This document shows, piece after piece, positions 2,270-26,726 of a stretch of DNA of 32,000 bases. Within the stretch, counting starts at the first letter, position 1. Each line of letters begins with the position of its first letter. The notes below the pieces were generated by a model, which saw only the letters and a list, made by a program, of their open reading frames with translations, made no database searches and was not told the origin of the DNA. Source of the DNA: Alphaproteobacteria bacterium (GTDB lineage Bacteria; Pseudomonadota; Alphaproteobacteria; Micropepsales; Micropepsaceae). Location: assembly GCA_028292825.1 (NCBI GenBank), contig JAQGLO010000087.1, forward strand, positions 16,136 through 48,135. The letters run 5' to 3'. Position numbers and translations under genes: made by a program.

Positions 2270-2490
2270 CTCCGCTATTGACCCAAAGGGAAAGGCCGCC
2301 GCCGCCGGGGCGCGGCCGTTCAGCGTCTCGGTATCGTGTCCGGTGGGAGACTGCTGCGACAATTGCGCCATTCCGGATAAGCAGGTGCAGCGGCAGTTGA
2401 CGCGCTTGTTTGTTTTCGCACCATAGCCTGAGCATGACGCCTTGCTGCCGGGTCTTTTGTGACACCGGGCCGGCTTATCTGGGAACCGGT

Positions 2491-4074: not shown

Positions 4075-5114
4075 CCGCCGCAGACCCATCCCAAGAACAC
4101 GCCTCCGCCTGGAGTCCGCCGGTGCACAGGCTGCGGATCCTGGTGATCATCGCGCTGCTGGCGCTGGCGGCCATGCTGGCCGTGCTTTACGCCTGGAGCC
4201 TGTGGCCCTTCGGCGGCGGCGCCCAGGTCACCGACAATGCCTATGTCCATGGCCGCACCACCGTGATCGCACCCCAGGTCAGCGGCTATGTCGTGGCGGT
4301 GCCGGTGAGCGACTATGCCCAGGTCCAGGCCGGCCAGGTGCTGGCGCGCATCGACGACAGCACCTATCGCGCCCGGGTCTCGCAGGCGCGCGCCAGCCTG
4401 GCGGCGTCGCAAGCCACCCTGGCCAACAACCGGCAGTCCCGCGCCTCCGGCGATGCCTCGCTGTCCGGCCAGCAGGCGGGCCTGATCCGGGCCCGCGCCG
4501 ACATGGCGCGCGTCACCGAACTGGTCAAGGACGGCTCGGTCTCCAAGCGCGAAGAGGACCAGACAAGGGCGTCGCTGATCCAGGCCCAGGCGGCGGCCGA
4601 AGTGGCGCGGCAGAATATCCGCACCGTCGATGTCGGGCGCGGCGGGCTGGAGGCGCAGGTGGCCGCAGCACAGGCGCAACTGGAAGCGGCGCAGATCGAT
4701 CTTTCCCATACCATAATCCGCGCCCCCGAAGCCGGGCAGCTGGGCGAGATCGGGGTGCGGCTGGGCCAGTATGTCACCAACGGCACCCAACTGATGTCAC
4801 TGGTGCCGCCCGAACGCTGGATCATTGCCAATTACAAAGAGGCGCAGACCGCCCATGTCGCGGTGGGCCAGTCCGTAACCTTCCGGGTGGATGCCCTGGA
4901 TGGCGCGCGCTTTACCGGCCATGTCCAGCAATTGTCGCCGGCGGCGGGGTCGGAGTTCGCGCTGCTCAAGCCCGACAATGCCACGGGAAATTTCGTCAAG
5001 GTGCCGCAGCGCATCGGCGTGCGCATCAGCGTCGATCCGGACCAGCCGATGGCGGCGCGCCTGCGGCCCGGCATGTCGGTCGTCACCCAGGTCGATACCA
5101 GCGGCGGGCCATGA
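4071..5114 (+). CDS. HlyD/EmrA-family periplasmic adaptor (membrane fusion protein).
   Basis: 347 aa. It has an N-terminal TM anchor (LRILVIIALLALAAMLAVLYAW) followed by TDNAYVHGRTTVIAPQVSGYVVAVPVSDYAQVQAGQVLARID, a typical lipoyl/barrel-sandwich hybrid start. A coiled-coil A/Q-rich middle and C-terminal NFVKVPQRIGVRI follow. Both ends overlap their neighbours by ATGA. Confidence 0.85.
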   Translation: MTAADPSQEHASAWSPPVHRLRILVIIALLALAAMLAVLYAWSLWPFGGGAQVTDNAYVHGRTTVIAPQVSGYVVAVPVSDYAQVQAGQVLARIDDSTYRARVSQARASLAASQATLANNRQSRASGDASLSGQQAGLIRARADMARVTELVKDGSVSKREEDQTRASLIQAQAAAEVARQNIRTVDVGRGGLEAQVAAAQAQLEAAQIDLSHTIIRAPEAGQLGEIGVRLGQYVTNGTQLMSLVPPERWIIANYKEAQTAHVAVGQSVTFRVDALDGARFTGHVQQLSPAAGSEFALLKPDNATGNFVKVPQRIGVRISVDPDQPMAARLRPGMSVVTQVDTSGGP

Positions 5115-6514
5115 AACGGTTTGGTGTCATGGCGGGTCTGCTTTTGCTCGCGGCCTGCGCGGGTCCGAAGGCCGATGTGCCGCCGCAGGCCGCCGTCACG
5201 CCGCCGCCGGCATGGCGCGGCACTGCCGCATCGGATGGCGTCGTTGCGGCGGGCTGGTGGCAGGCCTTCGGCGATCCCGTGCTGACGCGGATGGTCGAGA
5301 CGGCGCTGGCCGACAATGACGATATCGCCATCGCCGCCGGCCGCGTCGCCGAGGCGCGGGCGCAGTTCCGCCTTGCCCATGCCCAGAGCCTGCCCAGCAT
5401 CGGGGCTGTGGCCGAAGGCGGGCGCGACCGCGAGATCAATCCCGGCTTCGGTGTTCCTGAAACACAGAATGCGGGCGAAGGTGAAATCCAGATTTCCTAT
5501 GACCTGGATCTGTTCGGGCGCCTGGCCGACAGCGACAAGGCCGCCCGCGCCGTATTGCTGGCAAGCGAGGCGGCGCGGGACAATGTCCGGCTCGCCGTGG
5601 CGGCCTCCGCCGCCGGCGGATACATCACCCTGCGCGGGCTGGACGCGCGCCTGCTCGTGCTGCGCGATACCTTGGCGGCGCGCGGCGAGGAACTGCGGGT
5701 GGCGCGGCGCCGTGCCCAGGTGGGCTATTCCAGCCAGCTTGATCTGGCCCAGGCCGAGGCCGCCTATCATGCCACCGCCCAATTGATCCCGGCCACAGAG
5801 CTGGCGATCGCCAGGCAGGAAGATGGCCTGAGCCTGCTGCTGGGTGAAAGCCCCCGCGCCATCGCGCGTGGCATGGACTTCGATGTCCTTGCGGCGCCGG
5901 CCGTGCCGGTGGCATTGCCTTCGTCGCTGCTGCGGCGTCGTCCCGACATTGCGGCGGCCGAGCAGCAACTTGCCGTCGCCGATCATACGCTGGATGCGGC
6001 GCGTGATGCCTTCATGCCCGATGTGCGGCTGGCTGCCGCCGGCGGCCTGGTCGGCTCAACACTGGTGTCCGGCAGTCCCTTGGCGATCTGGTCGCTGGGC
6101 GGCAGCATCCTGGCGCCGCTGTTCACTGCCGGGCGGCTGGAAGCGCAGCAGGATGCCGCGACGGCGCGGCGCGACCAGGCGGCATTCGCCTATCGCAAGA
6201 CGGTTCTCTCCGCTTTCCGCGAGGTGGAGGATACGCTGGTGGCCGTGCAACGTGATGGCGAGCAGGAACAGGCGCTCGCCGCGCAACGGGACGCGCTGGC
6301 GCATGCGTTGCGCCTCGCCGCCAATCGCTACCGTGCCGGCTATTCCCCCTATCTCGACCAGCTCGATGCCCAGCGCGGCCTGTTGTCGGCACGACTGTCC
6401 CTCGTGCAGGCCCGCACCGACCGTCTCAATGCGCTTGTTCTACTCTATCAAAGCCTGGGGGGCGGCTGGACGCCCGAACAGGAGACGCAGGATACAAGGC
6501 AATCCGCCAGATAG
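5111..6514 (+). CDS. Efflux outer-membrane factor lipoprotein, NodT/OprM family.
   Basis: ATG 5111 gives MKRFGVMAGLLLLAACAGPK, with lipobox LAAC. WWQAFGDPVLTRMVETALADNDDIAIA is the typical OMF N-terminal motif. The C-terminal LVLLYQSLGGGW is a hallmark of this family. The track ORF 4004-6514 is this frame extended upstream over the adaptor gene. Confidence 0.85.
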   Translation: MKRFGVMAGLLLLAACAGPKADVPPQAAVTPPPAWRGTAASDGVVAAGWWQAFGDPVLTRMVETALADNDDIAIAAGRVAEARAQFRLAHAQSLPSIGAVAEGGRDREINPGFGVPETQNAGEGEIQISYDLDLFGRLADSDKAARAVLLASEAARDNVRLAVAASAAGGYITLRGLDARLLVLRDTLAARGEELRVARRRAQVGYSSQLDLAQAEAAYHATAQLIPATELAIARQEDGLSLLLGESPRAIARGMDFDVLAAPAVPVALPSSLLRRRPDIAAAEQQLAVADHTLDAARDAFMPDVRLAAAGGLVGSTLVSGSPLAIWSLGGSILAPLFTAGRLEAQQDAATARRDQAAFAYRKTVLSAFREVEDTLVAVQRDGEQEQALAAQRDALAHALRLAANRYRAGYSPYLDQLDAQRGLLSARLSLVQARTDRLNALVLLYQSLGGGWTPEQETQDTRQSAR

Positions 6515-6605: not shown

Positions 6606-7370
6606 ATGGGTTCCAGCATGACCGCATCCGATGGCATCGATAGCGCGAATTCTTTCGTCCGCTCGATCTTGCGGCGGGCGCTTGCGCTGGTCTGTCTTGC
6701 CGGTGCTTTCGCGCTGCTGTTCTGCGCCCCGGTCCAGGCGCGGCCGCGCGATGAGGCGATGGCCGGCGCCTATCATTGTGCGGCGATCTCCGATTCCCGG
6801 CGCTGGCTCGATTGCTATTACGGGGCAGCGCAGCCTGTGCGCGGCGCCCTGGGCCTGAAGCCCGCACCGGCAGCGCAGACCGGCCTAGTTTCGGCGCCCG
6901 CGACGGGCGCGCCCGCATCGCCGGGCGATATCGGGGTGCGGAACGCCGTCATGAGCGCGGCCGCGGGCTGCGGCGCCCAGCCGGACGAACGCGGATGGCT
7001 GAACTGTTATTATGCGGCCGCCCAGCCGATGCGGGCGACGCTGCATCTGTCACCCGCGCCGCAGGCGGCAGCGATGCCGCAACCGATGCCACCGGGGCCG
7101 ATCAGTGCCGGCAAGCCTGTGCCGGGGCCTGGGGATGGGGTGCCTTTCCTGTCGCGGATGGTGGCCTACAGTTTCGACAAATACGGGTTCTTTACCGTGA
7201 CGCTGGCCAATGGACAGGTGTGGCGCCAGGTGGACGGCGACACCGGCTATGCCCATTGGCGCAAGCCGGCGGCGACCTACATGGCGCACGTCACCTCAGG
7301 TTTCCTGACAAGCATCAATTTCGCGGTCAAGGGATTGCCTGGACTCTACAAGGTCCGGCGCATCTCCTAG
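6606..7370 (+). CDS. Secreted hypothetical protein with an internally duplicated Cys motif.
   Basis: 254-aa ORF with GC3-rich codon usage like its neighbours. The signal-like segment is RRALALVCLAGAFALLFCAPVQA|RP. Two copies of C-x11-C-Y-Y-x-A-A-Q-P-x-R-x-x-L-x-L-x-P-A-P are present. I recognise no family. The start could instead be ATG 6618. Confidence 0.6.
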   Translation: MGSSMTASDGIDSANSFVRSILRRALALVCLAGAFALLFCAPVQARPRDEAMAGAYHCAAISDSRRWLDCYYGAAQPVRGALGLKPAPAAQTGLVSAPATGAPASPGDIGVRNAVMSAAAGCGAQPDERGWLNCYYAAAQPMRATLHLSPAPQAAAMPQPMPPGPISAGKPVPGPGDGVPFLSRMVAYSFDKYGFFTVTLANGQVWRQVDGDTGYAHWRKPAATYMAHVTSGFLTSINFAVKGLPGLYKVRRIS

Positions 7371-7782: not shown

Positions 7783-10700
7783 ATGAAATTCTCACGCACC
7801 GCGTTGTTCCATGGCGTTTCACGCGCCGCACTCGTCACATCGCTGCTTTTGATCGCGCAGGCCGCCAATGCGCAACCGACGGAGCAAAGCGTGGAATCGG
7901 TGACCGTTACCGGCACCAATATCCGCGGCGCCGCGCCGGTCGGCAGCCATGTCGCCACGGTCGGGCAGCAGGAAATCGAGGCGCTGGCGCCCGTCAGCGT
8001 GTCAGGCGTGCTGGCATCCTTCCCCCAGCTCAGCAACTCCGGCACCGCGCCGCAGGGCGAAAACTCCTACACCTTCTACTCGCCCAACATTCACAATCTG
8101 GCGGCCTCGGCGTCCAACTCGACCCTGGTCGTGGTGGATGGCATGCGCATCCCCGGCGGCGGCTCGCAATGGGCGGAATCCGATCCCAACATCATTCCCG
8201 TCGTCGCCCTGCAGCGCGTCGAAGTGCTGGCGGACGGTGCGTCCTCGGTCTACGGCTCCGACGCCGTGGCCGGCGTGGTGAACTTCATAACCCGCAAGAG
8301 CTTTGACGGCATCCAGTTCGACGCCCAGGCCGGTTTCTCCAAGGGCATGCAGACCGACAATCTGGACGCCCTGTGGGGCACCCATTGGGACAGCGGCAAT
8401 GTCTATGTCGCGGCATCCTGGACCTATGGTTCGGAACTGGCGGCGGCTGATCGTCCCCAGTACAGCCGCGGTGACTATACCTCGCTCGGCGGCAACAACC
8501 AGAATTCGGCAAGCTGCTCGCCGGCTTCGATCCATCCCACCTTGCCCACCGCCGGCGCCGGCGGCGCCTACTGGTATGCGGGTCCCACCGGTGCAGGCTT
8601 TGCCAACACCCAGGCGGCGCGCCCCTGCAACCTGTCGATCTATGGCGACCTGATTCCCCAGGTCCAGCGCACCAACATCATGATGAAGGTGACGCAGGAC
8701 TTCTTCAGCGGCCGCCTGACCGTGTCGGATACCATGGTCTATAACGACCTGCATACCTTCCAGACAACCGGGCCCGGCACGATCAGCAACGTGAGTGTCT
8801 ATGGCCCGACGTCGGGCAAGGCCGGTCAGGTCAATCCCTTCTATCAGGCCCCGACCGGCGCACCGCTCACCAACACCGAGCAGGTATCGTGGGTGAATCT
8901 GCTGACGCCGCTGCCGTCGACGCGCACCACCGAAGACGTGTTCTACAACCGCTTCAATGCGAGCTACAACATCAACGACAACTGGCATGTCGACCTGGAT
9001 TGGGTGCTGGGCCAGAACAATTATGTCAGCGGCACCTATGACGGGTTCTGCGCGTCCTGCGCCTATCTGGCGCTGAACGGCACGGGGCTGGCCGGCGGCT
9101 CGCTGACCGGCACCGACGTTTCAGGGCGCAACGTCATCGCGCTGAATACGCCGCTCACCGCCGCCAATGCGCTGGATGTCTGGAATGCGCCGGGCACAGC
9201 CAACCAGACCTCGGTCCAGGTCCTGCATTCGCTGAGCTCGATCCAGACCCTGACCCCGATCTACAACTCAACCAACCAGGCGCGCGCCTCGATCAACGGT
9301 ACGCTGTTCTCGATGCCGGCCGGCGATGTGAAGGTGGCGCTGGGCGGCGAAATCTATGTCCAGCACATCCAGAAGGACCAGGTCGGCACCATCGCGACCG
9401 GCCCGTCCTCTTCGGGCGGCAGCGTGCAGCGCTACCGGTATGAGCGCACCACCAAGTCGGGCTTCGTCGAAGTGCAGATGCCGCTGGTCTCGCCGGAAAT
9501 GAACATCCCGCTGGTCCACAAGCTGGCGATCGACGTCTCCGGCCGCATGGACCAGTTCAGCGATGTCGGCTCGGTGGCGGTTCCCAAATACGCGATCGAC
9601 TGGGATGTGACCGATGATTTCAAGATTCGCGGCAACTATTCCCAGTCCTTCGTGGCCCCGCCGCTGCTGTCGCTGGGTGATCCCAACTATGGCTACACCT
9701 ATCAGGGTGGCGCTTCGACCGGCGGCCAGATCGACAATATCCCCGCCGCGAACTTCCCGGGCATTCAGAACATCCCGGGCGCGGTCTGCACCGTCAACGG
9801 CGCGGCTTCGACCACGCCGGCCTCAACCGGATGCCCCTTCATCACGCTGGGCAACAATGCCGGCACCGGCGGCACGGGCGGCAACCAGGGCCTGGAGCGC
9901 CAATATGGCGGCCTGTTCGTCAACGTGAAGCCGGAAACCGGCTTCTCGTGGTCGACGGGTTTTGACTACAATCCCAGCTGGCTGGAAGGCTTCCACACCT
10001 CCGTCACCCTGTTCAACAACACCTTCAAGGGTGCGGTGAATGCGGCGCATATCCAGCAGACGGCGAACGTGCCCTCGCTGTTCAAGTTCTTCCAGGTCTG
10101 CAACAATGGCGGGGGCTGCAGCGCGGCCCAGGTCAATACCTTCACCAACACCGCCAATGGCGCCATCACCGGCGCGCTGCCGTCAGGGAGCATCTACTAT
10201 CTGTGGGCGCATGACGAAACCAACTTCCTCTATCTGCGCATCCAGGGCATCGACTTCGACGCCAGCTATGACTTCGATCTGGGCGATTACGGCACCGTCC
10301 ATGTCGGTGACTATCTGACCCTCTTCACCCAGTTCAAGGAGGGTTATGACGGCGCCAATTATTTCAGCATCAAGGGCACGTCGGGCTTCAACGGCACCTT
10401 CTCGTCGCTGGAATACAATACCCGCTTCAACCTGGGCTGGACGGTCGGTCCGTTCTCGGTCGACACCTTCGTCAACTACATGCCCGGTTATCACAACTGG
10501 AACTCGACCTCGGTAACCCCGCTGAACGCCAACGCGCTTGGCGTGCCGACGGCGGGCGACAAGGTCGGCTCCTGGACCACGCTGGACCTCAACGTCGCCT
10601 ACAATTTCACGGATGGCTGGTTCGGCGGCGACCAGGTCTATGTCCATGTCAACAACCTGTTCGACAAGGATCCGCCCTTCATCAACACCACGGCGAATGG

Positions 10701-10797
10701 TGCGGGCGCCAGCTCGGGCGCGGCCTTCGGCTTCAACGCCTTCAACGCCAGCCCGATCGGCCGCACGGTCGGCATCGGCATGCGGGCCAAGTTCTGA
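7783..10797 (+). CDS. TonB-dependent outer-membrane receptor.
   Basis: 1004 aa, with RBS AGGGGGA upstream. The signal peptide ends AANA|QP and is followed by a TonB-box-like ESVTVTG. Plug motifs are present (VEVLADGASSVYGSDAVAGVVNFITRK). The body is a long, G/N/T/Y-rich, beta-strand-like region, and the C-terminal residue is aromatic (GIGMRAKF). Confidence 0.9.
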   Translation: MKFSRTALFHGVSRAALVTSLLLIAQAANAQPTEQSVESVTVTGTNIRGAAPVGSHVATVGQQEIEALAPVSVSGVLASFPQLSNSGTAPQGENSYTFYSPNIHNLAASASNSTLVVVDGMRIPGGGSQWAESDPNIIPVVALQRVEVLADGASSVYGSDAVAGVVNFITRKSFDGIQFDAQAGFSKGMQTDNLDALWGTHWDSGNVYVAASWTYGSELAAADRPQYSRGDYTSLGGNNQNSASCSPASIHPTLPTAGAGGAYWYAGPTGAGFANTQAARPCNLSIYGDLIPQVQRTNIMMKVTQDFFSGRLTVSDTMVYNDLHTFQTTGPGTISNVSVYGPTSGKAGQVNPFYQAPTGAPLTNTEQVSWVNLLTPLPSTRTTEDVFYNRFNASYNINDNWHVDLDWVLGQNNYVSGTYDGFCASCAYLALNGTGLAGGSLTGTDVSGRNVIALNTPLTAANALDVWNAPGTANQTSVQVLHSLSSIQTLTPIYNSTNQARASINGTLFSMPAGDVKVALGGEIYVQHIQKDQVGTIATGPSSSGGSVQRYRYERTTKSGFVEVQMPLVSPEMNIPLVHKLAIDVSGRMDQFSDVGSVAVPKYAIDWDVTDDFKIRGNYSQSFVAPPLLSLGDPNYGYTYQGGASTGGQIDNIPAANFPGIQNIPGAVCTVNGAASTTPASTGCPFITLGNNAGTGGTGGNQGLERQYGGLFVNVKPETGFSWSTGFDYNPSWLEGFHTSVTLFNNTFKGAVNAAHIQQTANVPSLFKFFQVCNNGGGCSAAQVNTFTNTANGAITGALPSGSIYYLWAHDETNFLYLRIQGIDFDASYDFDLGDYGTVHVGDYLTLFTQFKEGYDGANYFSIKGTSGFNGTFSSLEYNTRFNLGWTVGPFSVDTFVNYMPGYHNWNSTSVTPLNANALGVPTAGDKVGSWTTLDLNVAYNFTDGWFGGDQVYVHVNNLFDKDPPFINTTANGAGASSGAAFGFNAFNASPIGRTVGIGMRAKF

Positions 10798-10809
10798 TCC
10801 AGCTTTCAA

Positions 10810-10838
10810 GCCCGTCCGGATTTCCGGGCGGGCTTTTT
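10810..10838 (+). terminator. Intrinsic terminator after the TonB-dependent receptor gene.
   Basis: GCCCGTCCGG-attt-CCGGGCGGGC forms a 10-bp stem with one G-T pair, followed by TTTTT. Confidence 0.75.
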
Positions 10839-10862
10839 CCTTTCAGCAAATTCGGGGTTTCC

Positions 10863-11954
10863 ATGGATATCAAGAAGCGCGATTTTCTCTTGGCCGGCGC
10901 GGCGATCGGCGCCGGCCTGGCCGCCACCCAGGCGCTGGCCCAGCCTGCCAAGCGCAAGCAGGCCTCGTCGGTGGACGTGAACTACAAGCCGCGCCGGCTG
11001 AACAAATGCATCGAGCTGTGGGAAGATGGCCAGCCCATCTATTACACCGGCTGGGGCGTGGCCACGGGCGTTGACGCCTACCAGCAGGGCATCAAGATGT
11101 CCAAGACCTGGGCCGACGCCATCAATGTCGAGATGGAGCACGGCCTGTACGACCTGAAAGACCTGCGCGAATTCATGCGCGGCCTGCGCGATGGCGGCCC
11201 CACGCCGTCAGGCCACCGTCTCCCCACCGTGTTCGTGACCCCGCCCGTGATCGGTCTGGACGAAGCCTATGCCCGCGCCAACACCTGGATGCTGGAACAG
11301 ATCCTGTGCACGGGTGTCCAGGGCATTCACATCTGTCACGCGCGCGACGCCAAGGCGATCGAGACCTATGCCCATATGGGCTGCCGCTACCCGTTCCGGG
11401 ATTTCCCCAACACGCCACCGGTCAAGATGCAGGGCCTGCGCGGCAACAGCGCCAGTTATGCCGCCGATATCTGGGGTGTCTCGGGCGGCACCTATCAGCA
11501 CATCGCCGACCTGTGGCCGCTCAATCCGCGCGGCGAGGTCATCTTCGGCGTCAAGATCGAGGACACCTATGCCGACCAGCAAGTGGAGAAGACGCTGGCC
11601 ATTCCGGGCATCGCCTTTGCCGAATGGGGGCCGGGCGACCACAATCTGTGGCTCAACGGCTATCACGGCGTTGAGGATGGCGGGGAATCCGGCCATCCGG
11701 TGCTGCGCGATGCCGCCGGCAAGGTGACCAGCGACGTCTCCGCCCTGCCCAACATGGAGGCGGTGCGCCAGCGGACGCTGGCGGCCTGCAAGAAGAACAA
11801 GGTGATGTTCCTCAATGCCGCGGAGACGGAAGAGGGCCACAACCATGTCGTCCAGCAGATCAAGGACGGCACCATGGTGGTCGCCACCGGGCGCGGCGGT
11901 GAAAAGGTGGCGCAGATCGGCCGCGAATACACCAAGCGGAAAATGCCGGTGTGA
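10863..11954 (+). CDS. Exported HpcH/HpaI-aldolase/citrate-lyase-like TIM-barrel protein, paralog 1.
   Basis: 363 aa. The leader MDIKKRDFLLAGAAIGAGLAATQALA|QP has a Tat-like K-R-x-F-L n-region, a weakly hydrophobic G/A-rich h-region and an AxA site. The body resembles the HpcH/HpaI family by eye: WADAINVEMEH (cf. ..DxEH), CRYPF...GLRG (cf. RYPPxGxRG), and FGVKIED..AIPGIAFAEWGPGD (cf. vqIEt..vpGvDgvfiGPaD). The family assignment comes from memory of motifs only. Confidence 0.55.
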   Translation: MDIKKRDFLLAGAAIGAGLAATQALAQPAKRKQASSVDVNYKPRRLNKCIELWEDGQPIYYTGWGVATGVDAYQQGIKMSKTWADAINVEMEHGLYDLKDLREFMRGLRDGGPTPSGHRLPTVFVTPPVIGLDEAYARANTWMLEQILCTGVQGIHICHARDAKAIETYAHMGCRYPFRDFPNTPPVKMQGLRGNSASYAADIWGVSGGTYQHIADLWPLNPRGEVIFGVKIEDTYADQQVEKTLAIPGIAFAEWGPGDHNLWLNGYHGVEDGGESGHPVLRDAAGKVTSDVSALPNMEAVRQRTLAACKKNKVMFLNAAETEEGHNHVVQQIKDGTMVVATGRGGEKVAQIGREYTKRKMPV

Positions 11955-11965
11955 CAAAAAATAAG

Positions 11966-11993
11966 GGCGGTGCCGGGCGGCGCCGCCTTTTTT
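11966..11993 (+). terminator. Intrinsic terminator between the two aldolase-like paralogs.
   Basis: GGCGGTGCC-gggc-GGCGCCGCC forms a 9-bp stem with one G-T pair, followed by TTTTTT. Confidence 0.7.
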
Positions 11994-12052
11994 GTTGCAG
12001 CGCGATGGGCCTAGAGTTCGCGCCTCGAATTACAAAAACAGGGAAGACAGCA

Positions 12053-13159
12053 ATGGACATCAAGAAACGCGATTTTCTCAGCCTTGCCGCCGGGATCGGC
12101 GCCGCGGCGGGTCTTGCCGGTCCGGCCGGCGCCCAGCCGCGCGGTCGTCGACTGGATGGCCCGGTCGAGGTCAACCAGCGCGAGTTTGTCAGCAAGAATG
12201 TCCAGCCCTCGACGGTGGACTGGAACTACAAGCCGCGCCGCATCAACAAGGCGATCGAGCTGTGGGAAGACGGCCAGCCGATCTATTATAATGGCTGGGG
12301 CGTCGGCCCGGGTGTCGATCCCTATACCCAGGGCGTGAAGATGGCCCGCACCTGGTACGACGCCATCAATGTGGAGATGGAACATTTCCCGGTGGACTGC
12401 ACCGCGCTGCGCGAGTTCATGCGCGGTCTGGTTGACGGCGGCCCGACGCGTTCGGGCCATCGCACGCCGGCGGTATTCGTCGAGACCGGCATCATCGGCC
12501 TGGATGAGCCCTATGCCCGCGCCAACACCTGGTTGATCGAACAGCTTCTGGATTGCGGCATTCACGGCATCCACCAGTGCCATGCCCGCGACGCCAAGGC
12601 GGTGCAGGTCACCATGCAGATGGGCTGCCGCTATCCCTTCCTGGATCGCCCAGGCGTGCCCAACCTGCCGATGCGCGGCCTGCGCGGCTCCGGTCCCAGC
12701 TGGGCGTCACAGGTCTGGGGCGTCAACCTCAACAAGTATCTTCATGTCGCCGACCTGTGGCCGCTCAATCCCAAGGGCGAGCTGATCTTCGGCGTGAAGA
12801 TCGAGGACACCTATTGCGACCAGCAGGCGGACAAGATCATCGCGCTGCCGGGCATGTCGATGGCCGAATGGGGCCCCGGCGACCACTCCTATTGGGTGTA
12901 CGGTCTGGAAGTCTTCCCGGAGGATGGCTCGCGTCCCAAGGATGTGGTCATCGACCGGCCGGAGATGCGCAAGATTCGCCAGAACGTCCTGGACCTGTGC
13001 AAGAAGAACAAGGTCATGTTCCTCAACGCGGCCAATACCGAAAAAACCTCGTCGGACTACATCATCACCCAGATCAAGGACGGCGCCATGGTGCTGGAAT
13101 GCGGCGAAGACGCCGCCATCGAGGGCCGCGAATACACCAAGCGCAAAATGCCGGTCTGA
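12053..13159 (+). CDS. Exported HpcH/HpaI-aldolase-like TIM-barrel protein, paralog 2.
   Basis: 368 aa from ATG 12053. The track ORF starts at 11951, but its extra residues run across the terminator. The leader is MDIKKRDFLSLAAGIGAAAGLAGPAGA|QP. By eye it is roughly 55-65% identical to paralog 1. It has the same MDIKKRDFL start and GREYTKRKMPV end, and the same EMEH / CRYPF..GLRG / VKIED / WGPGD motifs. Confidence 0.55.
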   Translation: MDIKKRDFLSLAAGIGAAAGLAGPAGAQPRGRRLDGPVEVNQREFVSKNVQPSTVDWNYKPRRINKAIELWEDGQPIYYNGWGVGPGVDPYTQGVKMARTWYDAINVEMEHFPVDCTALREFMRGLVDGGPTRSGHRTPAVFVETGIIGLDEPYARANTWLIEQLLDCGIHGIHQCHARDAKAVQVTMQMGCRYPFLDRPGVPNLPMRGLRGSGPSWASQVWGVNLNKYLHVADLWPLNPKGELIFGVKIEDTYCDQQADKIIALPGMSMAEWGPGDHSYWVYGLEVFPEDGSRPKDVVIDRPEMRKIRQNVLDLCKKNKVMFLNAANTEKTSSDYIITQIKDGAMVLECGEDAAIEGREYTKRKMPV

Positions 13160-13235
13160 TACGGACCGTGACATGCCATGGGGCGGCGACCGGAACCGGG
13201 CGCCGCCCACATCACAAAATAAGGGGAGATACCAG

Positions 13236-14198
13236 GTGAAGAAAATTCTTGTGACCATGCTGCTGGGCTGCACGGCCTTGGCCGCCGTGCCCGCAACCGC
13301 ACAGGTGAAGCAGACCCGCGAGCAGATCATATTCTATACCAGCGACTGGAAGGGCGATCGTTTCCCCGATGGGCGTCCCAAGGTCTCCGCCGATCTTTTG
13401 AAGCGCGCCGCCGATTGCACCATCGAGGATGTCTGGGGCTTCCTGCGGCAGAAGGGTTATCGCAACCAGTATGAAGGCGGCTGGATGATGCTGCACAATG
13501 ACCGGCCTTTCGCCGGCCGCGCGCTCACCGTGCAGTACATGCCCGAACGCCCGGACATGAACGCCGCCATCACCGCCGAGGGCAAGGCCGAGGGGCGCGT
13601 CAGCGGCCACAATAGCTGGCCGATCGCCGAGCTGCAGGAAGGCGATGTGTACATCGCCGACGGCTATGGCAAGCAGGTCGAAGGTACCCTGATCGGCTCC
13701 AACCTGGGCAACGGCATCTACGGCAAGTCGCATACCGGCTTTGTCTTTGACGCCGCCATTCGCGACCAGGAGGAAAACAAGGAGATCAAGGGCTTCAACG
13801 GCTTCTATCGCAGCATCGATCCGTCCGCGATCCGCGACATGGAAATGACAGCGATCAACGCCCCGATCCGCATCGGCCGCGCCACCGTGCTGCCGGGCGA
13901 TGTCGTGCTGGCCAAGGAAGACGGTGTGTTGATCATTCCCGCGGTGTTGGCGGAAGACGCCATTTCCACTGCCGAGTTCATCGGCCTGACCGACGACTAT
14001 AATTTCCAGCTCAACCTGGCCAACAAGAATGGCGGCGCGGTGGAAGGTGGCTGGGACGAAAAGAAGTTCGCCGGCTTCAAGGAATACATCGCAAAGAATC
14101 CCAAGAAGGTCCGGATGTCGAAGGAAGAGTTCGACAAGATGTACAGCCAGTTCTACGACCGCACGATGCATCCCCGTTCGGGCCAAGGCGGGCTTTGA
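13236..14198 (+). CDS. Exported RraA-family (class II pyruvate aldolase / oxaloacetate decarboxylase-like) protein with N- and C-terminal extensions.
   Basis: 320 aa from GTG 13236, with AAGGGGA at 13221-13227. The leader is VKKILVTMLLGCTALAAVPATA|QV, a Sec signal. An LLGC lipobox-like alternative also exists. The core matches the RraA pattern: GDVYIADGYG..GTLIGSNLGNGIYGKSHTGFVFDAAIRD...APIRIGRATVLPGDVVLAKEDGVLIIP (cf. vlVvDggG..A.lG..la..A...G..G.viDG.vRD ... v.PGD.v.aD.dGvvviP). Confidence 0.6.
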   Translation: MKKILVTMLLGCTALAAVPATAQVKQTREQIIFYTSDWKGDRFPDGRPKVSADLLKRAADCTIEDVWGFLRQKGYRNQYEGGWMMLHNDRPFAGRALTVQYMPERPDMNAAITAEGKAEGRVSGHNSWPIAELQEGDVYIADGYGKQVEGTLIGSNLGNGIYGKSHTGFVFDAAIRDQEENKEIKGFNGFYRSIDPSAIRDMEMTAINAPIRIGRATVLPGDVVLAKEDGVLIIPAVLAEDAISTAEFIGLTDDYNFQLNLANKNGGAVEGGWDEKKFAGFKEYIAKNPKKVRMSKEEFDKMYSQFYDRTMHPRSGQGGL

Positions 14199-14262: not shown

Positions 14263-15570
14263 TCAGGCGTCGCGCGCATCCATGGACACAGATGCGGCGG
14301 GCAGGGTGATGGTAATCATCAGTCCGCCTGTCGGCCGGTTCTGTGCGGAAATCGTGCCGCGGGTTGCAATGATGGCGCGCTTGGCGATGGACAGGCCAAG
14401 GCCGACGCCATGTTCGTCGGTGACGGAGCGCTTGGCAAAAGGGTCGAAGAAGGACGGCAGGAACTGCTCCGGCACGCCCGGTCCGCTGTCGGTCACCGTC
14501 ACGGCGAATTCCTGGTCACCATGCTCGGTCAGGGACAATTCGACCTGCTGGCCGCGGCGTGAAAAGCGTATGGCGTTGCGCAGGACATTCTCGATCGCCC
14601 GGTGCACCAGCTTGCCGCTGCCCGCCACGATCCATTCGCGCTTGTCATGCGCCGGATCGATCTGCCAGACGACGGCCACATCCCTGGGACCGGCTTCGAA
14701 GGTGGCATCCTCCAGCATGCCGCGCAGGATGGCGCCCAGGTCGAAATATTCGCTGTTGGCATGGGTTCCGCTTTCCAGCCTTGTCAGCATGAGCAGTTCC
14801 CCCACCAGATCGTCGAGATAGCTTGCCTCCCGGCTGATGCGGCACAGCGAGGCTTCCAGCTTGTCGGGCGCTTGCCGGGCCAGGCCTATGGCCAGCTGAA
14901 GGCGCGTCAGGGGCGTGCGCAGTTCGTGCGAGACATCCGATATCAGCTTGTCGCGCGAAGCGACCAGTTCCTGTAGCCGTTCGGCCAGCTTGTCGAAGCC
15001 GCGCGACAATTCTCCCAGCTCATCCTTGCGGTGCCGCATGGCCGGCCCCAGGCGCGCCGAGAAATCCGCATTCGCCAGCCGGGTAAACCCCTTGGAGATA
15101 TGCTGGATGGGATTGGTCAGGTTCCAGGCCAGGAGCCCACTGAAGATGAGCCCGCCCAGCATGGCGAGCATCATGATCTCCGGTGGAATGTCGAACGGGC
15201 CGCGCCCATAGCCCAGGTGGCGCCGCACTTCATAGGTGACGAGATATTGCCGGCCCTGGGGATCATGCGCCCGCACGGAAACCGCGCCGCTGTTGATGTC
15301 GCTGCGGACCTTGCTGTCCTTGCCCCAGGGCTGGACCACCAGGCGGCCCCGGTCATCCAGCGGCCAGTCGGCGAGCATGGTGTTGATGCCCTGCGCGCCG
15401 CTCTGCTGGATGATCTCGCTTGCCGCCGCCAGCGATATCTTTGCCAGCGCTCTTGTGGTCTCGCTGGGCAGGGGGTGCAGGACATTGAACAGCAGCCACA
15501 GGCCATCGACGATCAGGATGAAGGTAACGCCGAAGCCCAGATAGATCTTCCAGAACAGGACCCGCTTCAT
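14263..15570 (-). CDS. Sensor histidine kinase with a periplasmic sensor, HAMP, HisKA and HATPase domains.
   Basis: 435 aa. Two TM segments flank a periplasmic region of about 110 aa. The H-box is SHELRTPLT, the N-box LRNAIRFS, G1 DSGPGVP and G2 GVGLGLSIA. Its start overlaps the stop of the response regulator by ATGA. Confidence 0.9.
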   Translation of the reverse strand: MKRVLFWKIYLGFGVTFILIVDGLWLLFNVLHPLPSETTRALAKISLAAASEIIQQSGAQGINTMLADWPLDDRGRLVVQPWGKDSKVRSDINSGAVSVRAHDPQGRQYLVTYEVRRHLGYGRGPFDIPPEIMMLAMLGGLIFSGLLAWNLTNPIQHISKGFTRLANADFSARLGPAMRHRKDELGELSRGFDKLAERLQELVASRDKLISDVSHELRTPLTRLQLAIGLARQAPDKLEASLCRISREASYLDDLVGELLMLTRLESGTHANSEYFDLGAILRGMLEDATFEAGPRDVAVVWQIDPAHDKREWIVAGSGKLVHRAIENVLRNAIRFSRRGQQVELSLTEHGDQEFAVTVTDSGPGVPEQFLPSFFDPFAKRSVTDEHGVGLGLSIAKRAIIATRGTISAQNRPTGGLMITITLPAASVSMDARDA

Positions 15571-16253
15571 GGGCGCAGCTTCAGCCGATACCCGATCCCG
15601 CGGACCGTCTCGATTTCCATATGGTCCGACGTGGCGGCCGCCAGCTTGCGGCGCAGGTGCCCGGCATGGACGTCGATGCTGCGGTCATACTGCTCGCGCC
15701 GCCGCCCCAGCACGATCATGGAGAGGTCATCCTTGTTCACCACCACCTTTTCCGCCCGCATCAGGGTGGCCAGCATGTTGAATTCGGTGGCGGTCAGTTC
15801 GAACGGCACGCCGCTCCAGCTGACTTCCCGGTGCAGGATGCTGAGCGTCAGCTCGCCGGTGGCCAGGTGGTCCGCCTTGGCCTGGTCGTTCCTGGGCTCG
15901 CGCCGCAGCCGCGCCCGCAGCCGCGCCAGGAGCTCGCGCGGATAATAGGGCTTTGCCAGGTAATCGTCGGCGCCCATTTCCAGCCCGATGACCCGGTCCA
16001 CATCGTCGCCGCGCGCCGTCAGCATGATCACCGGAACGCTGCTGGTATTGCGGATGCGCCGCAGGACTTCCAGCCCGTTCATGTCCGGAAGCATCACGTC
16101 GAGAATGACGGCGTCGAAGCTGCCGTTGGAAATGGCGACCTCTCCCTCATGGGCGTTCAGGGCGGAGGTGATGCGGAAGCCTTCGCTGGTCAGATACTCG
16201 GTGAGCATTTCGCTCACCTTGTCATCGTCATCGATCAGCAGGATATGATTCAT
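15567..16253 (-). CDS. OmpR/PhoB-family DNA-binding response regulator.
   Basis: 228 aa. The receiver domain has ILLIDDD and DAVILDVMLPDMNG (phospho-acceptor Asp context). The C-terminal winged helix contains LTATEFNMLATLM and VRGIGYRL. Confidence 0.9.
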   Translation of the reverse strand: MNHILLIDDDDKVSEMLTEYLTSEGFRITSALNAHEGEVAISNGSFDAVILDVMLPDMNGLEVLRRIRNTSSVPVIMLTARGDDVDRVIGLEMGADDYLAKPYYPRELLARLRARLRREPRNDQAKADHLATGELTLSILHREVSWSGVPFELTATEFNMLATLMRAEKVVVNKDDLSMIVLGRRREQYDRSIDVHAGHLRRKLAAATSDHMEIETVRGIGYRLKLRP

Positions 16254-16316: not shown

Positions 16317-16716
16317 TGCGGCCGCCTTGTCATAATATTTACAATAGCTTTGCGCTTGCTTCCCCGGACGTTTCGAGAGGAGCGGTTTTTTGTATCGCCG
16401 CTTGTCTGAAGCGATTGCGGCGTTGCGCGGGGCCCGCCGCCGTATTTCGCTGTGCCAATGGCAACCTGCGCAGGCGGCCCGTGCCGCATGCCGCAGTTGC
16501 TAAGTGATCCGACGGTTTGTTCGCAACAGCGAAGGCCGGAAAAAGCGATCACAGGGGGGCGCAAAACAACGATTGCCGGAACTTGGAAAAATGGAGGGCG
16601 CATACCGCCATCCATCTGCGGATCTGGTGGCGGCCTCCCCCGTCGTCACCAGGTCCGCTACCCCGGCGAGCCATGCCGACATCCACTCAGAAAATAAAAA
16701 CAACAGCGAGGGAACA

Positions 16717-17877
16717 ATGAAGGCCAACTGGATAATTCCGCTTCTGGTACTTTGCGTCGGCGCGGCGCGGGCGGAGATCGCGGTGTCGGCGAATGACGGC
16801 AAGCAGCTGCGGCCGGGCGACAGCGTCACCGGCACCACGCCCGACAGTGTTTCGGTGCTGGACTTCGGCGGCGGCCGCGCGAAGGTCATCGGCGATATTG
16901 CCATGCCCGCGGCCATGATCGGGCCGCCCACCTCCGTCGCCCTCTCCAGAAGCGGTGCCTTCGCACTCGTCACATCCTGCCAGGTCATGGCGGGCGACAC
17001 GCTGGTTCCCGCCGACACTTTGTCGGTGATCGATCTGTCGAGGCCGTCCCACCCCCGGGTGATCCAGACGCTTCACGCCGGCATGGGGGCCAGCGGCGTC
17101 TCGATCAGCCCGGACGGCAAGCTCGCGCTGGTGGCCAATACCAGGGGCGACTCGATCAGTGCATTTTCCATTTCCGGAAAGACCCTGACCGCCCTCGGAG
17201 ACGTCAAGCTGGAAGCGGGCGCCAATCCCACCGATGTCACCTTCAGTCCCGATGGCAAGACCGCCATCGCGGTGGCGCAACGCATCTCCAGCCTGGTCGT
17301 GCTGTCGGTGAACGGCACGCAGGTTGCGGCCACTGGCAAGGCATTCTCGCCGGGCCGCACCCCCTATGGGGCTGTCGTCACCCATGACAGCAAGTACGTC
17401 ATCAACACCAATCTGGGCGGGGCCACGCCGCCCGCGGGTGTCACGCCCGAGCGCGGCATGGTGCGCGAAGGCACCATCTCCATGTCTGAAATCGCATCGG
17501 GAACGGTGACGGCCTCGGTGGTGGTCGGTCCCACGCCCGAGCATGTCGCCTTGTCCGCCGACGGCAAGTATGTGGCGGTGGTGGTGGCCAATCGCAGTGC
17601 CGCCGTGCGCTCCGACCCCAAGTTCGCCAGCGTCCTGGGCCTGCTGGAAATCTATGCCGTGGGCGAGGGGACGCTGACCCCGGTGGCGCGGGCCGATACC
17701 GGACACTGGTGCCAGGGCGCGGTCTTCAGCAAGGATGGTGGCACCATCCTTCTGCAATGCGCGGCGGAGCGCGAGATCGAAGTCTATCGCTTCGACGGCA
17801 AAAGCCTGACGCGGGATGGCGCCACCATCGCACTGGTTTCCCGCCCCGGCGCGATTGCGACGGCGTCCAGCCGCTAG
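16717..17877 (+). CDS. Secreted beta-propeller protein (YncE/lactonase-like, YVTN-type repeats).
   Basis: 386 aa from ATG 16717, with a strong GAGGGA RBS. The track ORF starts at 16504, but MKANWIIPLLVLCVGAARA|EI is a clean signal peptide. Blade-like units recur: SPDGKLALVAN, SPDGKTAIAVA, SADGKYVAVVV and SKDGGTILLQ. Confidence 0.7.
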   Translation: MKANWIIPLLVLCVGAARAEIAVSANDGKQLRPGDSVTGTTPDSVSVLDFGGGRAKVIGDIAMPAAMIGPPTSVALSRSGAFALVTSCQVMAGDTLVPADTLSVIDLSRPSHPRVIQTLHAGMGASGVSISPDGKLALVANTRGDSISAFSISGKTLTALGDVKLEAGANPTDVTFSPDGKTAIAVAQRISSLVVLSVNGTQVAATGKAFSPGRTPYGAVVTHDSKYVINTNLGGATPPAGVTPERGMVREGTISMSEIASGTVTASVVVGPTPEHVALSADGKYVAVVVANRSAAVRSDPKFASVLGLLEIYAVGEGTLTPVARADTGHWCQGAVFSKDGGTILLQCAAEREIEVYRFDGKSLTRDGATIALVSRPGAIATASSR

Positions 17878-18037: not shown

Positions 18038-18994
18038 ATGAAGGCCAAATATTATCTCGCCACTGTCGCCGTCCTGGCGCTTGTCGGGCCTGCCTCCGCC
18101 CAGTTCCTGGGCAAGGAAGAAAATGCCGTCACGATGCCGAAGATGCCGGGCGTCTATCTCGCACCCAAGCCCATCGCGCTGACGCCCTATACCGCGCCGA
18201 ACCGTCCGCACTGGAAGATTTCCGACGTGCTGGCGATGCACAAGGGCGAGGCCGATTTCGTGCAGCCCATCGTGCGCAACAAGGATCAGGAAGCCGACTA
18301 CATCTCGATGGCGCCCGGCGCCAAGACCAAGATGAAGATGTGGCCCGATGACCGCATCATCTTCATCGTCCGCGATGGCGCCCTCAAGGTGTCGATCGAC
18401 GGCTATGAGCCCTTCACCGCCACCAAGGGCTTCATGGTGAACGTACCCTTCCGCCACATGTACACGCTGGAAAGCACCGGAACGGTTCCGGCGCTGCGCT
18501 TTGAAGTGCGCCAGGTCGGCTCGGTTCCGGTCTATCCGGCCACCGAGACCCCCGATCCGGTCAAGGGCATGAGCTATGTCAAGGTGATCGAGCAGCCCGG
18601 TCCGTCCAAGGAGAAGGACAGCAACCCGATCTATGTGGACTACAACAAGGAATTCCTGGGCACTGACAAGGCCTATGGCGGCAAGTTCGTGTGGGACGAC
18701 CATTTCACCTCGAACATCCTGCGCGGCAAGGCCCAGAAGGTCGTGCCGCCGGATACCGACAAGGGCCATTTCCACATCGGCTGGACGGAATTCTGGATGG
18801 TGATGGAAGGCTCGATCGGCATCAAGATCGAGGGCGTTCCGTATTTCAACACCGAGCCGGGCGACATCATCACCGCCGCCCAGGGCCGCTGGCATCGTGC
18901 CGGCAACGATCCGAGCGCGCCGTGGTCGACGCGCGTCCCGATCAACCCGCGCCCGCCGATTCTGCACAACTTCGAAGCGCCGGCCGGCGACTGA
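18038..18994 (+). CDS. Secreted bicupin protein.
   Basis: 318 aa. The signal peptide is MKAKYYLATVAVLALVGPASA|QF. The C-terminal half has canonical cupin motifs: GHFHIGWTEFWMVMEG (HxH...E) and PGDIITAAQGRWHRAGN (PxG..H...N). The N-terminal half has cupin-like strand spacing (IIFIVRDGALKVSIDG...GFMVNVPFRHMY) but lacks the His cluster. Confidence 0.7.
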   Translation: MKAKYYLATVAVLALVGPASAQFLGKEENAVTMPKMPGVYLAPKPIALTPYTAPNRPHWKISDVLAMHKGEADFVQPIVRNKDQEADYISMAPGAKTKMKMWPDDRIIFIVRDGALKVSIDGYEPFTATKGFMVNVPFRHMYTLESTGTVPALRFEVRQVGSVPVYPATETPDPVKGMSYVKVIEQPGPSKEKDSNPIYVDYNKEFLGTDKAYGGKFVWDDHFTSNILRGKAQKVVPPDTDKGHFHIGWTEFWMVMEGSIGIKIEGVPYFNTEPGDIITAAQGRWHRAGNDPSAPWSTRVPINPRPPILHNFEAPAGD

Positions 18995-19063: not shown

Positions 19064-19204
19064 GGGTCGGAACTTCGCCGCATAAATGCTGCGGCGCAGC
19101 AAAATTGTCAGGGCGCTGAAAGTCTGATTATTTGTCCGCTGCGCGCTGTATACCGGCGCCGGGGAGTTCGCCGCGCTGGGCGGCCAAAAACAAAAGAGTT
19201 GTCG

Positions 19205-22321: not shown

Positions 22322-22322
22322 C

Positions 22323-26541: not shown

Positions 26542-26726
26542 GACGGGAATCCAGGCATGGGCGCGATTATAAGGGATCGCGGAATTTCGCAAAATTAACT
26601 GTTTCAAATTGGGCGTCCGGGCATGGGCTGACGCGCCGGATGATCCGTTTTCGCACCGCTGGGCCGCGTTCGCGGGCCTTTGGCATGGCACAAATCATGA
26701 AGGGGTATTGGCCAAAAGGATGTCCC

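Follow-up and report, generated by a model that had tools for sequence, protein, structure and literature searches.

Predicted export of HpcH/HpaI-like and RraA-like proteins encoded next to a TonB-dependent receptor in an alphaproteobacterium of the Micropepsaceae

Why would a bacterium export proteins with the folds of 2-keto-acid aldolases and encode them next to an outer-membrane receptor? 2-Keto-acid aldolases, as well as acid-sugar dehydratases, are treated as cytoplasmic enzymes. The question is raised by a stretch of 32,000 nucleotides, here called the window, from the genome assembly of a soil alphaproteobacterium of the Micropepsaceae (GCA_028292825.1, contig JAQGLO010000087.1, positions 16,136 to 48,135). 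Within positions 7783-14198 of the window, all on the plus strand, a gene for a TonB-dependent receptor (TBDR) is followed by three genes, here named A, B, and C, whose products carry N-terminal export signals. A sequence-only reading of the locus had described this arrangement, and all four genes were recovered in that order. We favor, with a probability of roughly 45%, the interpretation that the receptor and its neighbors form a locus for TonB-dependent uptake of nutrients, similar to an incomplete CUT (carbohydrate utilization containing TBDR) locus, and that A/B and C may work in the periplasm as lyases on 2-keto-3-deoxy sugar acids or on keto acids closely related to them.

The first gene (7783-10797, plus strand) encodes a TonB-dependent outer-membrane receptor of 1004 aa. 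Its plug (PF07715, 52 bits, E = 1e-13) and 22-strand barrel domain (TonB_dep_Rec_b-barrel, PF00593, 71 bits, E = 1.9e-19) are both present, and its signal peptide ends with ANA before QP. Compared to the NCBIfam equivalogs for siderophore, B12, and heme receptors, it scored far below every cutoff. Gene A (10863-11954, plus) encodes a predicted exported HpcH/HpaI-like TIM-barrel protein of 363 aa, assigned by structure match and motif alignment. Gene B (12053-13159, plus) encodes a paralog of A (368 aa; 57% identity by BLASTP, E = 2e-149), and gene C (13236-14198, plus) a predicted exported RraA-like protein of 320 aa (Pfam RraA-like, E = 4.7e-19). Three observations place the start of B at the ATG at 12053: its leader, a ribosome-binding site (AGGGAAG), and the 368 aa of the GenBank prediction; the list of open reading frames (ORFs) instead opens at an upstream GTG (11951). 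C starts with a GTG (13236), which is preceded by the ribosome-binding site AAGGGGAGA; both are identical in two relatives (L001 and L006). The three proteins of the window are exactly those deposited as GenBank MDB5734619-21, and the lengths of A, B, and C agree with these gene calls. Two strong terminator-like hairpins, each with a 12-bp stem and followed by a T-run, lie between the genes on the plus strand: a GC-rich one with nine GC pairs between the TBDR gene and A (10808-10835), and a second one between A and B (11963-11990). Similar hairpins occur in relatives (at ~11095-11130 in L001, and at ~6880-6905 and ~8030-8060 in L006), with one located after A in both. This suggests that the genes of the locus are transcribed separately, with attenuation, or at graded expression levels rather than as a plain operon.

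Are the three leaders genuine export signals? Those of A (residues 1-26; MDIKKRDFLLAGAAIGAGLAATQALA, followed by QP) and B (MDIKKRDFLSLAAGIGAAAGLAGPAGA, followed by QP) share the start MDIKKRDFL, a Gly/Ala-rich, weakly hydrophobic h-region, and an AxA site (LLAGAAIGAGLAATQALA before QP with ALA in A; SLAAGIGAAAGLAGPAGA before QP with AGA in B). They resemble signals for twin-arginine translocation (Tat) with a K-R pair (KKRDFL) and without R-R, and score 14.3 and 14.2 bits against Pfam TAT_signal (cutoff 22.7). In 7 of the 32 aligned orthologs of A, R-R-D/N-L/V-L occupies the same columns, the second Arg (R6) and L9 being invariant; orthologs from Acidobacteriaceae read RRDLL where the alphaproteobacterial ones read KRDFL. 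More distant members of the A family have classical leaders for the general secretion (Sec) pathway. Relatives of A without a leader (~291 aa) start precisely where the conserved core does, at residue 44 of A, and lack the h-region. Since the leader pattern is conserved across homologs and the leaderless relatives begin at the core, the leaders result neither from chance nor from miscalled starts, the latter a possibility that the sequence-only reading had left open. We also scored leaders heuristically, relative to the mature starts, in ~170 related loci, which flagged some MKR/MRR Sec-type leaders of C homologs as Tat-like. Leaders were found on 122 of 125 HpcH-like proteins (68 K-R Tat-like, 32 R-R Tat-like, 22 Sec-like); the N-termini of the other three were unaligned, and none was leaderless. 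Nearly all of the 132 RraA-like proteins had Sec-type leaders, and 107 were scored as Sec-like.

The leader of C (residues 1-22; MKKILVTMLLGCTALAAVPATA, followed by QVK) is laid out as MKK-ILVTMLLGCTALAAV-PATA before QVK, and this pattern is kept in 22 of 22 homologs: A20 (-3) and Q23 (+1) are invariant, the h-region varies in sequence, and a highly conserved mature N-terminus follows immediately. This is what a signal peptide that is cleaved off would leave in an alignment. The leader had been described as Sec or lipoprotein-like; it fits Sec export with cleavage by signal peptidase I, but a lipoprotein is unlikely. The Cys in question is located at position 12, after only eight h-region residues, and is missing in several homologs (P0277, P0293, P0298, P0309, P0315, and P0317). 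Taken together, the predicted export of all three products is supported by the conservation of their leaders, and A, B, and C are very probably exported proteins of these two folds. The suggestion that Tat export reflects folding and metal loading before transport is weakened, because Sec leaders occur within the same family, which argues against cytoplasmic metal loading as a general requirement.

We subsequently asked which fold A and B adopt. Neither protein matched any Pfam or NCBIfam family, even at E = 0.1, except for the subthreshold TAT_signal. A single-sequence comparison to the PDB gave only noise, and a profile of 32 A homologs remained below threshold against the HpcH/HpaI chains in the PDB (E = 0.4-0.9). 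An AlphaFold (AF2) monomer model of A (predicted local distance difference test score, pLDDT, 85.3; predicted template modeling score, pTM, 0.85) was compared to the PDB with Foldseek. The top 36 matches were all of the HpcH/HpaI type (E = 1e-13 to 5e-8; target TM score 0.72-0.79) and included HpcH, HpaI, GarL, YfaU, SwHKA, macrophomate synthase, and SbnG. The model thus has the same (β/α)8 fold as the HpcH/HpaI class II aldolases (HpaI/HpcH, GarL, YfaU/RhmA, SwHKA; PF03328), with Foldseek E-values of 1e-13 to 1e-9. Secondly, three relatives (P0132, P0142, and P0154) and a Phenylobacterium paralog with a Sec leader (L084) exceed the PF03328 cutoff (31-47 versus 25 bits) and share 43-48% identity with A; P0142 and P0154 are leaderless and come from contigs too short to show neighboring genes. 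Thirdly, A can be aligned to GarL along its motifs: DAINVEMEH corresponds to DWLVLDGEH, RYP and G-x-RG are common to both, and KIED and GPGD correspond to QIES and GPSD. These three independent lines (modeled structure, PF03328-passing relatives, and motif alignment) place A and B, as modeled, in the HpcH/HpaI superfamily. The fold proposed in the sequence-only reading is therefore upheld by structure, bridging relatives, and motifs, although no HpcH_HpaI profile detects A or B directly.

The active site of A and B is only partly that of the textbook enzymes. The motifs D-x-x-x-x-E-x-EH, RYP, G-x-RG, x-IE, and GP-x-D are shared, as are the Glu/Asp metal ligands and the His. The acidic ligands E233 (VKIED) and D259 (WGPGD) of A align to E153 and D179 of GarL (E149/D175 of HpaI), and H93 (VEMEH) aligns to H50 of GarL (H45 of HpaI). 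VKIED and WGPGD are present in both A and B, as had been noticed by eye, and E92, H93, E233, and D259 are invariant in the A family (32 homologs). In contrast to HpaI (R70) and GarL (R75), the catalytic Arg of strand β3 is not kept in A, where the corresponding residue is F124 (hhalign) or V125 (MAFFT). None of 12 A-family members, exported or leaderless, has an Arg or Lys on that strand, and a hydrophobic residue (Val or Phe) takes the place of the Arg throughout the subfamily. The doubt that had been raised about this Arg was justified. The A/B subfamily further differs from HpcH/HpaI enzymes by an invariant Lys in place of the Gln before the metal-binding Glu, by an invariant C-terminal tail (G-R-E-Y-x-K-R-K-M-P-V/W), by a mature protein that is larger (~320 versus ~255 aa) and carries two inserts (residues 176-190 and 262-295), and by the Tat or Sec leaders of nearly all close members, the characterized enzymes being cytoplasmic. 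Since the β3 Arg is lost, A and B would have to stabilize the enolate with other invariant residues, and their chemistry may differ from that of textbook HpaI and may not be aldol cleavage. Invariant residues at the strand ends of the A family are H159-A160-R161, K231 (the Lys mentioned above), E254, and H260; its tail reads GREYTKRKMPV. From this conservation, K231, H159/R161, or an Arg of the tail may be considered as candidates to replace the missing Arg. As a separate observation, one metagenomic relative (P0137, 868 aa) is a secreted fusion of a right-handed β-helix (Beta_helix/DUF1565) and a C-terminal HpcH-like domain. Right-handed β-helix domains are typical of carbohydrate-active enzymes, and the fusion hints that the HpcH-like domain may be connected with the processing of polysaccharides or carbohydrates.

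The assignment of C is more direct. C aligns to the RraA-like family PF03737 along profile positions 3-152 of 152 with 69.5 bits (cutoff 24.5; E = 4.7e-19), and its closest PDB entries are RraAS2 of S. coelicolor (5x15, E = 2e-14) and the HMG/CHA aldolase (HMG, 4-hydroxy-4-methyl-2-oxoglutarate; CHA, 4-carboxy-4-hydroxy-2-oxoadipate) from P. putida (3noj, E = 1e-7). As in the HMG/CHA aldolases (LigK/ProA, 3noj), an Arg-Asp dyad is kept: R176-D177 of C, which 22 homologs share without exception, corresponds to R123-D124 of 3noj in the alignment. In the P. putida enzyme, this dyad binds pyruvate and Mg (bioRxiv 10.1101/516542). The call of C as RraA-like, for which an AIRD motif had been cited, is hence confirmed, with the motif present and the dyad retained. 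Nevertheless, C is an ortholog neither of LigK/PcmE nor of RraA, as its scores of 46.4, 47.6, and 34.2 bits against TIGR02798, NF006731, and NF006875 compare to cutoffs of 304.5, 179, and 136 bits. Large N- and C-terminal extensions surround the RraA core. Unlike the characterized RraA-like members, C has a putative cleavable Sec leader, ~40 additional N-terminal residues, and ~80 additional C-terminal residues. FlDet, an RraA-family enzyme beside which C can be set by description, shares the RraA fold and provides a precedent for a 2-keto-3-deoxy sugar acid substrate. FlDet, with 237 aa, is a cytoplasmic protein from which the initiator Met is not removed; RraAS2 is the characterized relative of higher identity to it, with 26% (PMC8563752).

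If these proteins work together with the receptor, their genes should be found together elsewhere. Relatives of A form 871 clusters (50% identity) at E-values up to 0.001. They were located at 544 sites in species-representative genomes, of which 80 loci with 10-kb flanks were analyzed. For C, the sample comprised 80 metagenome loci among the matches listed, 37 of them at least 10 kb long. In the closest clade (metagenome-assembled genomes similar to Rhizomicrobium/Micropepsales), the gene order is unk6606 (an exported protein, see below), TBDR, A, C, a convergent response regulator and kinase, and a β-propeller gene. TBDR orthologs with 69-80% identity are located upstream of A in L001, L002, L004, L006, and L010. 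B is missing between A and C in L001, L002, L004, L010, and the metagenome locus L092; the order A-B-C was also found in L006 and a 35.8-kb contig of the Joint Genome Institute (JGI). Compared to L001, the closest relative, B is a 1.2-kb insertion. Its coding sequence alone is 91.6% identical at the DNA level to a gene after ribH-nusB in the genome of L001 (L057), the identity of the flanking genes being 82-85%. These identities point to a lineage-specific insertion of B, presumably by recent relocation or gene conversion of a paralog. Overall, an RraA-like gene is located within 10 kb of an HpcH-like gene in 27 of the 80 A-centered loci, including ~20 from Acidobacteriaceae, and a TBDR or TBDR-like barrel is encoded in 16 of these 80 loci and in 11 of the 37 listed C-centered loci of at least 10 kb.

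Many family members have a different home. In ~30 of the 80 loci, HpcH-like genes stand alone in a housekeeping block (glyA-nrdR-ribH-nusB-[one to three copies]-thiL-hppA). The block, with one to three tandem genes for HpcH-like proteins with export leaders, extends over hemA, mucR, glyA, nrdR, ribH, nusB, the HpcH-like genes, thiL, and hppA in many Alphaproteobacteria (L003, L012, L013, L016, L019, L022, L049, L055, L058, L061, L062, L066, and L077). One would hardly expect to find a catabolic enzyme encoded there. One genome is split: L088 holds the propeller, unk6606, TBDR, and C, and the HpcH-like genes occupy the housekeeping block elsewhere (L016). Given this split and the adjacency in the clade of the window, the relocation of A beside TBDR-C suggests functional coupling. 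Thus, the linkage of exported HpcH-like and RraA-like genes, often with a receptor gene, is real and arose repeatedly in three lineages (Alphaproteobacteria similar to Micropepsales, Phenylobacterium, and Acidobacteriaceae). Many loci lack it, however, and the three genes do not form a fixed unit: the linkage proposed in the sequence-only reading recurs only in part, and B is an insertion.

The partner genes in other genomes give an indication of the substrate class. Enolase-superfamily (MR_MLE) genes accompany C homologs in 28 of the 37 listed loci of at least 10 kb, UxuA/xylose-isomerase-like genes in 18, TBDR genes in 11, and genes of the major facilitator superfamily (MFS) in 8. Tat-type leaders with R-R were found on 85 of 110 enolase-superfamily neighbors and 62 of 68 UxuA-like neighbors; the neighbor resembling dihydrodipicolinate synthase (DHDPS) has no leader. 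This implies that the MR_MLE and UxuA-like neighbors with Tat leaders are probably periplasmic acid-sugar dehydratases. They occur in L028-L052 (Acidobacteriaceae), L086, and L095-L169 (soil and peat metagenomes). Approximately 20 loci of Acidobacteriaceae combine a DHDPS-like gene, two HpcH-like, two RraA-like, and one UxuA-like gene, and a gene for a pyrroloquinoline quinone (PQQ)-cytochrome c dehydrogenase, with enolase-superfamily genes nearby. In these loci, a gene similar to 3-keto-disaccharide hydrolases is often located between the RraA-like pair, and a CarboxypepD_reg/OMP barrel is encoded in 10. The cluster of Phenylobacterium hankyongense (L084) comprises a GntR/FCD regulator, an RraA-like protein (Sec), an HpcH-like protein (Tat), an MFS permease, a second HpcH-like protein (Sec), a TBDR, and a faint match to choice_anch_I; genes for a PQQ dehydrogenase/cytochrome c, a FAH-family protein, and an aldehyde dehydrogenase are located nearby. 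The MFS permease gene of L084 thus lies between the two HpcH-like genes, and that of L092 after C. Ring-cleavage dioxygenases, hydratases, isomerases, or dehydrogenases of aromatic pathways were found neither in the window nor among the recurrent annotated neighbors in the ~170 loci. Of the substrate range originally considered (aromatic, lignin-derived, or sugar-acid compounds), the recurrent neighbors support the sugar-acid type, but the aromatic and lignin part is unsupported.

The proposal of periplasmic sugar-acid lyases follows from these exported dehydratase, lactonase, and PQQ partners, together with the precedents of GarL and FlDet, which act on one substrate class. GarL, of the HpcH family, is annotated in the record of E. 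coli K-12 as α-dehydro-β-deoxy-D-glucarate aldolase, and FlDet converts 2-keto-3-deoxyglucarate to α-ketoglutarate semialdehyde by dehydration and decarboxylation (PMC8563752). A sugar, oligosaccharide, or sugar acid would cross the outer membrane through the receptor and be oxidized and delactonized in the periplasm by PQQ dehydrogenases and the lactonase-like propeller. In many relatives, Tat-exported enolase-superfamily or UxuA-like dehydratases would then produce the 2-keto-3-deoxy sugar acid. The last step could be carried out by C and A/B, either as retro-aldol cleavage of a C-C bond (as in GarL) or as dehydration/decarboxylation (as in FlDet), A and B reaching the periplasm in folded form via Tat (K-R variant) and C via Sec. 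The small products may enter the cell through an MFS permease, which is present in relatives and not in this window.

Such a route resembles the periplasmic direct oxidation by PQQ glucose dehydrogenase and the gluconolactonase PpgL in that sugar is oxidized outside the cytoplasm and that genes for PQQ dehydrogenases and for a propeller of the lactonase type are repeatedly found near those for the exported lyases, the propeller being only weakly similar to PpgL (E = 1.4e-3). Direct oxidation stops at gluconate or ketogluconate, which is then imported. In the loci described here, however, export signals are found on enzymes of the dehydratase and aldolase types as well, implying that further steps may occur in the periplasm. 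The second known system to be compared is the CUT locus, defined in Xanthomonas and Caulobacter by a TBDR gene together with genes for one or more degradative enzymes, an inner-membrane transporter, and a regulator (PMC1790865). The locus of the window shares with it a large TBDR beside genes for degradative enzymes and an adjacent regulator, and relatives (L084 and L092) add an MFS transporter and GntR regulators. It differs by C-C lyase folds instead of glycoside hydrolases or lyases, by the lack of an adjoining inner-membrane uptake transporter in the window, and by its regulator, a two-component system on the opposite strand.

Several observations weigh against a receptor-fed sugar-acid pathway. 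A and B lack the catalytic Arg on which the chemistry of HpaI and GarL depends, and their leaders have K-R instead of R-R and score below the TAT_signal cutoff. Neither a dehydratase nor an uptake permease adjoins the locus in the window, and the terminator-like hairpins between the genes speak against a simple operon. A receptor is linked in only ~20-30% of related loci, HpcH-like genes are located near C in just 2 of the 37 C-centered loci of at least 10 kb among the matches listed, and the solitary loci in the housekeeping block fit a receptor-independent role. Finally, producing pyruvate in the periplasm has no obvious bioenergetic rationale.

The explanation that survives best beside the sugar-acid proposal makes the receptor an incidental neighbor: the HpcH-like proteins would then serve as general periplasmic or envelope housekeeping proteins, for example by removing reactive keto acids. 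This would account for the one to three nusB-thiL copies in many Alphaproteobacteria with no receptor, RraA-like, or permease gene within 10 kb, for the movement of B as a bare coding sequence, and for the hairpins that isolate each gene. We consider it unlikely, since clustering with a receptor and an RraA-like gene arose in three distant lineages with differing gene orders. Moreover, A was relocated beside TBDR-C in the clade of the window, and unk6606-TBDR-A-C has remained syntenic with the genes for the two-component system and the propeller.

A slightly less likely explanation is that A/B and C cleave or rearrange non-carboxylate diketones or hydroxyketones that arise from periplasmic oxidation of glycosides or sugars (keto-sugars, 3-keto-glycosides). 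The acidobacterial loci, which interleave RraA-like genes with a PF06439 3-keto-disaccharide hydrolase (E = 2.7e-41), a xylose-isomerase-like barrel with a Tat leader, and a PQQ dehydrogenase, are what such a pathway might look like. The loss of the HpaI Arg in A and B could reflect a different donor, "hydroxy ketone aldolases" of the HpcH family (7o5i and 6r62) are among the structural matches of A, and P0137 joins a β-helix domain to an aldolase-like domain. But the strongest partner of C is the enolase-superfamily type of acid-sugar dehydratase (28 of the 37 listed loci), the GntR/FCD, FAH, and aldehyde dehydrogenase genes of Phenylobacterium fit sugar-acid routes, and the window contains neither a PF06439 nor a xylose-isomerase-like gene.

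It is improbable that A, B, and C are noncatalytic, that is, exported binding or regulatory proteins on enzyme folds, such as substrate-capture partners of the receptor. RraA of E. coli is a non-enzymatic regulator, a protein inhibitor, and both the missing canonical Arg of A and B and the large additional N- and C-terminal segments of C would fit such a role. The invariance of E92, H93, H159, K231, E233, D259, and H260 at the barrel strand ends of the A family and of R176-D177 in C argues against it, and so close an association with dehydratases points to a step in metabolism. A periplasmic version of the breakdown of ring-fission products from aromatic compounds or lignin, equally improbable and suggested by the automated JGI/GenBank names (HpaI aldolase, HMG/CHA aldolase, "CHM isomerase"), by the dyad of 3noj kept in C, and by the characterized founders of both folds, which belong to the homoprotocatechuate and protocatechuate 4,5-cleavage pathways, was rejected on gene context and equivalog scores: C reaches 46 of the 304.5 bits of the LigK/PcmE equivalog, A and B match no model, and the window and the recurrent annotated neighbors of the ~170 loci contain no aromatic-pathway enzyme, these neighbors being of the sugar-acid type.

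The sugar-acid proposal may be extended, in a speculative and rather doubtful manner, beyond this locus. Soil Alphaproteobacteria and Acidobacteriota could possess a largely periplasmic, non-phosphorylative sugar-acid pathway that is fed by TBDRs. Its order would be PQQ dehydrogenase, lactonase, Tat-exported dehydratase, and then the exported RraA-like and Arg-less HpcH-like lyases, with the Arg-less HpcH-like site rewired around Lys231, His159/Arg161, or the C-terminal tail. The dehydratase would be of the enolase-superfamily or UxuA-like type, and 2-keto-3-deoxy acids would be cleaved at a C-C bond or decarboxylated before reaching the cytoplasm.

Taken singly, the components are known already: both folds, the receptor, and export by Tat or Sec. 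Full-text searches of the literature brought up no paper on enzymes of the HpcH-like, RraA-like, or enolase-superfamily type that are exported. Three features hence appear to be undescribed: the large exported Arg-less HpcH/HpaI-like branch without a Pfam or NCBIfam model, the exported RraA-like branch, and their recurrent clustering with Tat-exported acid-sugar dehydratases. The deposited names of A, B, and C ("2,4-dihydroxyhept-2-ene-1,7-dioic acid aldolase," "hypothetical protein," and "5-carboxymethyl-2-hydroxymuconate delta-isomerase") do not reflect export, and that of C clashes with its RraA-like Pfam family. The exported forms are abundant and concentrated in Acidobacteriota and oligotrophic Alphaproteobacteria of peat and soil. 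If they are active in the periplasm, part of the sugar and uronic acid turnover in soil would be extracytoplasmic and coupled to TonB-dependent uptake. Automatic names such as HpaI aldolase, RraA, or "CHM isomerase" (5-carboxymethyl-2-hydroxymuconate isomerase) would in that case lead to wrong pathways when the metabolism of these abundant groups, few of which are well represented in culture, is reconstructed. In addition, the HpcH-like branch without the Arg shows how nature may have rewired the active site of class II aldolases, enzymes that are used as biocatalysts.

The genes surrounding the locus partly belong to the same syntenic group. unk6606 (6606-7370, plus) encodes an exported protein of 254 aa without a Pfam or NCBIfam match, in which a Cys motif is internally duplicated (C...R-W-L-D/N-C-Y-Y-G/A-A-A-Q-P-V/M-R...L-x-L-x-P-A-P). 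Because of its syntenic place directly upstream of the orthologous TBDR gene (L001, L002, L004, L006, L010, L088, and L092), it is probably part of the uptake system. On the other side, Pfam matches identify a histidine kinase (HAMP/HisKA/HATPase; 14263-15570, minus) and an OmpR-type response regulator (15567-16253, minus). This two-component system (14263-16253) is convergent with C and in synteny with A/C in L001, L006, L008, and L009; by its position, it is a candidate regulator of the locus. The earlier statement that the locus contains no inner-membrane permease, kinase/dehydrogenase, or regulator must accordingly be amended: no uptake permease adjoins it in the window, but a two-component system abuts it. 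Further downstream, an exported seven-bladed β-propeller of the lactonase/YVTN type (16504-17877, plus; Pfam Lactonase, E = 7e-12) is encoded, whose true start is probably internal to the ORF. In the PDB, it weakly resembles 6-phosphogluconolactonases and PpgL, a periplasmic gluconolactonase (E = 1.4e-3), and homologs occur in 12 of the 80 A-centered loci, including Sphingomonas and Acidobacteriaceae, and also in L084 and L088. The next gene encodes an exported cupin-domain protein (18038-18994, plus; Pfam Cupin_2, E = 2e-9); its homologs, which have Sec-like leaders, adjoin HpcH-like genes in 12 of 80 loci.

The remaining parts of the window are more distant from this group. After the cupin gene, positions 19199-23645 (plus) encode a 1040-aa DUF1592/DUF1588/DUF1587/DUF1585/DUF1595 protein and then a DUF1552 (HXXSHH) protein, and two tetratricopeptide-repeat (TPR)-GT41 genes (O-GlcNAc-transferase-like) are located at 24397-29575 (minus). 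A PQQ-dependent dehydrogenase gene (29736-31643, plus) is of the kind that recurs beside the exported lyases elsewhere; here, it is 15 kb away. Upstream of unk6606, an EmrB-like MFS protein, an HlyD-family adaptor, and an outer-membrane efflux protein (2410-6514, plus) form a tripartite efflux system and not an uptake permease. Rfam and tRNA scans detected only a tRNA-Gly(CCC) gene (2162-2235), outside the locus. It marks the end of a stretch (1-2235) with a GC content of 0.47-0.50, compared to 0.61-0.70 elsewhere, which contains an ORF for a haloacid dehalogenase (HAD)-type hydrolase (1103-2002) and is possibly the edge of an acquired element.

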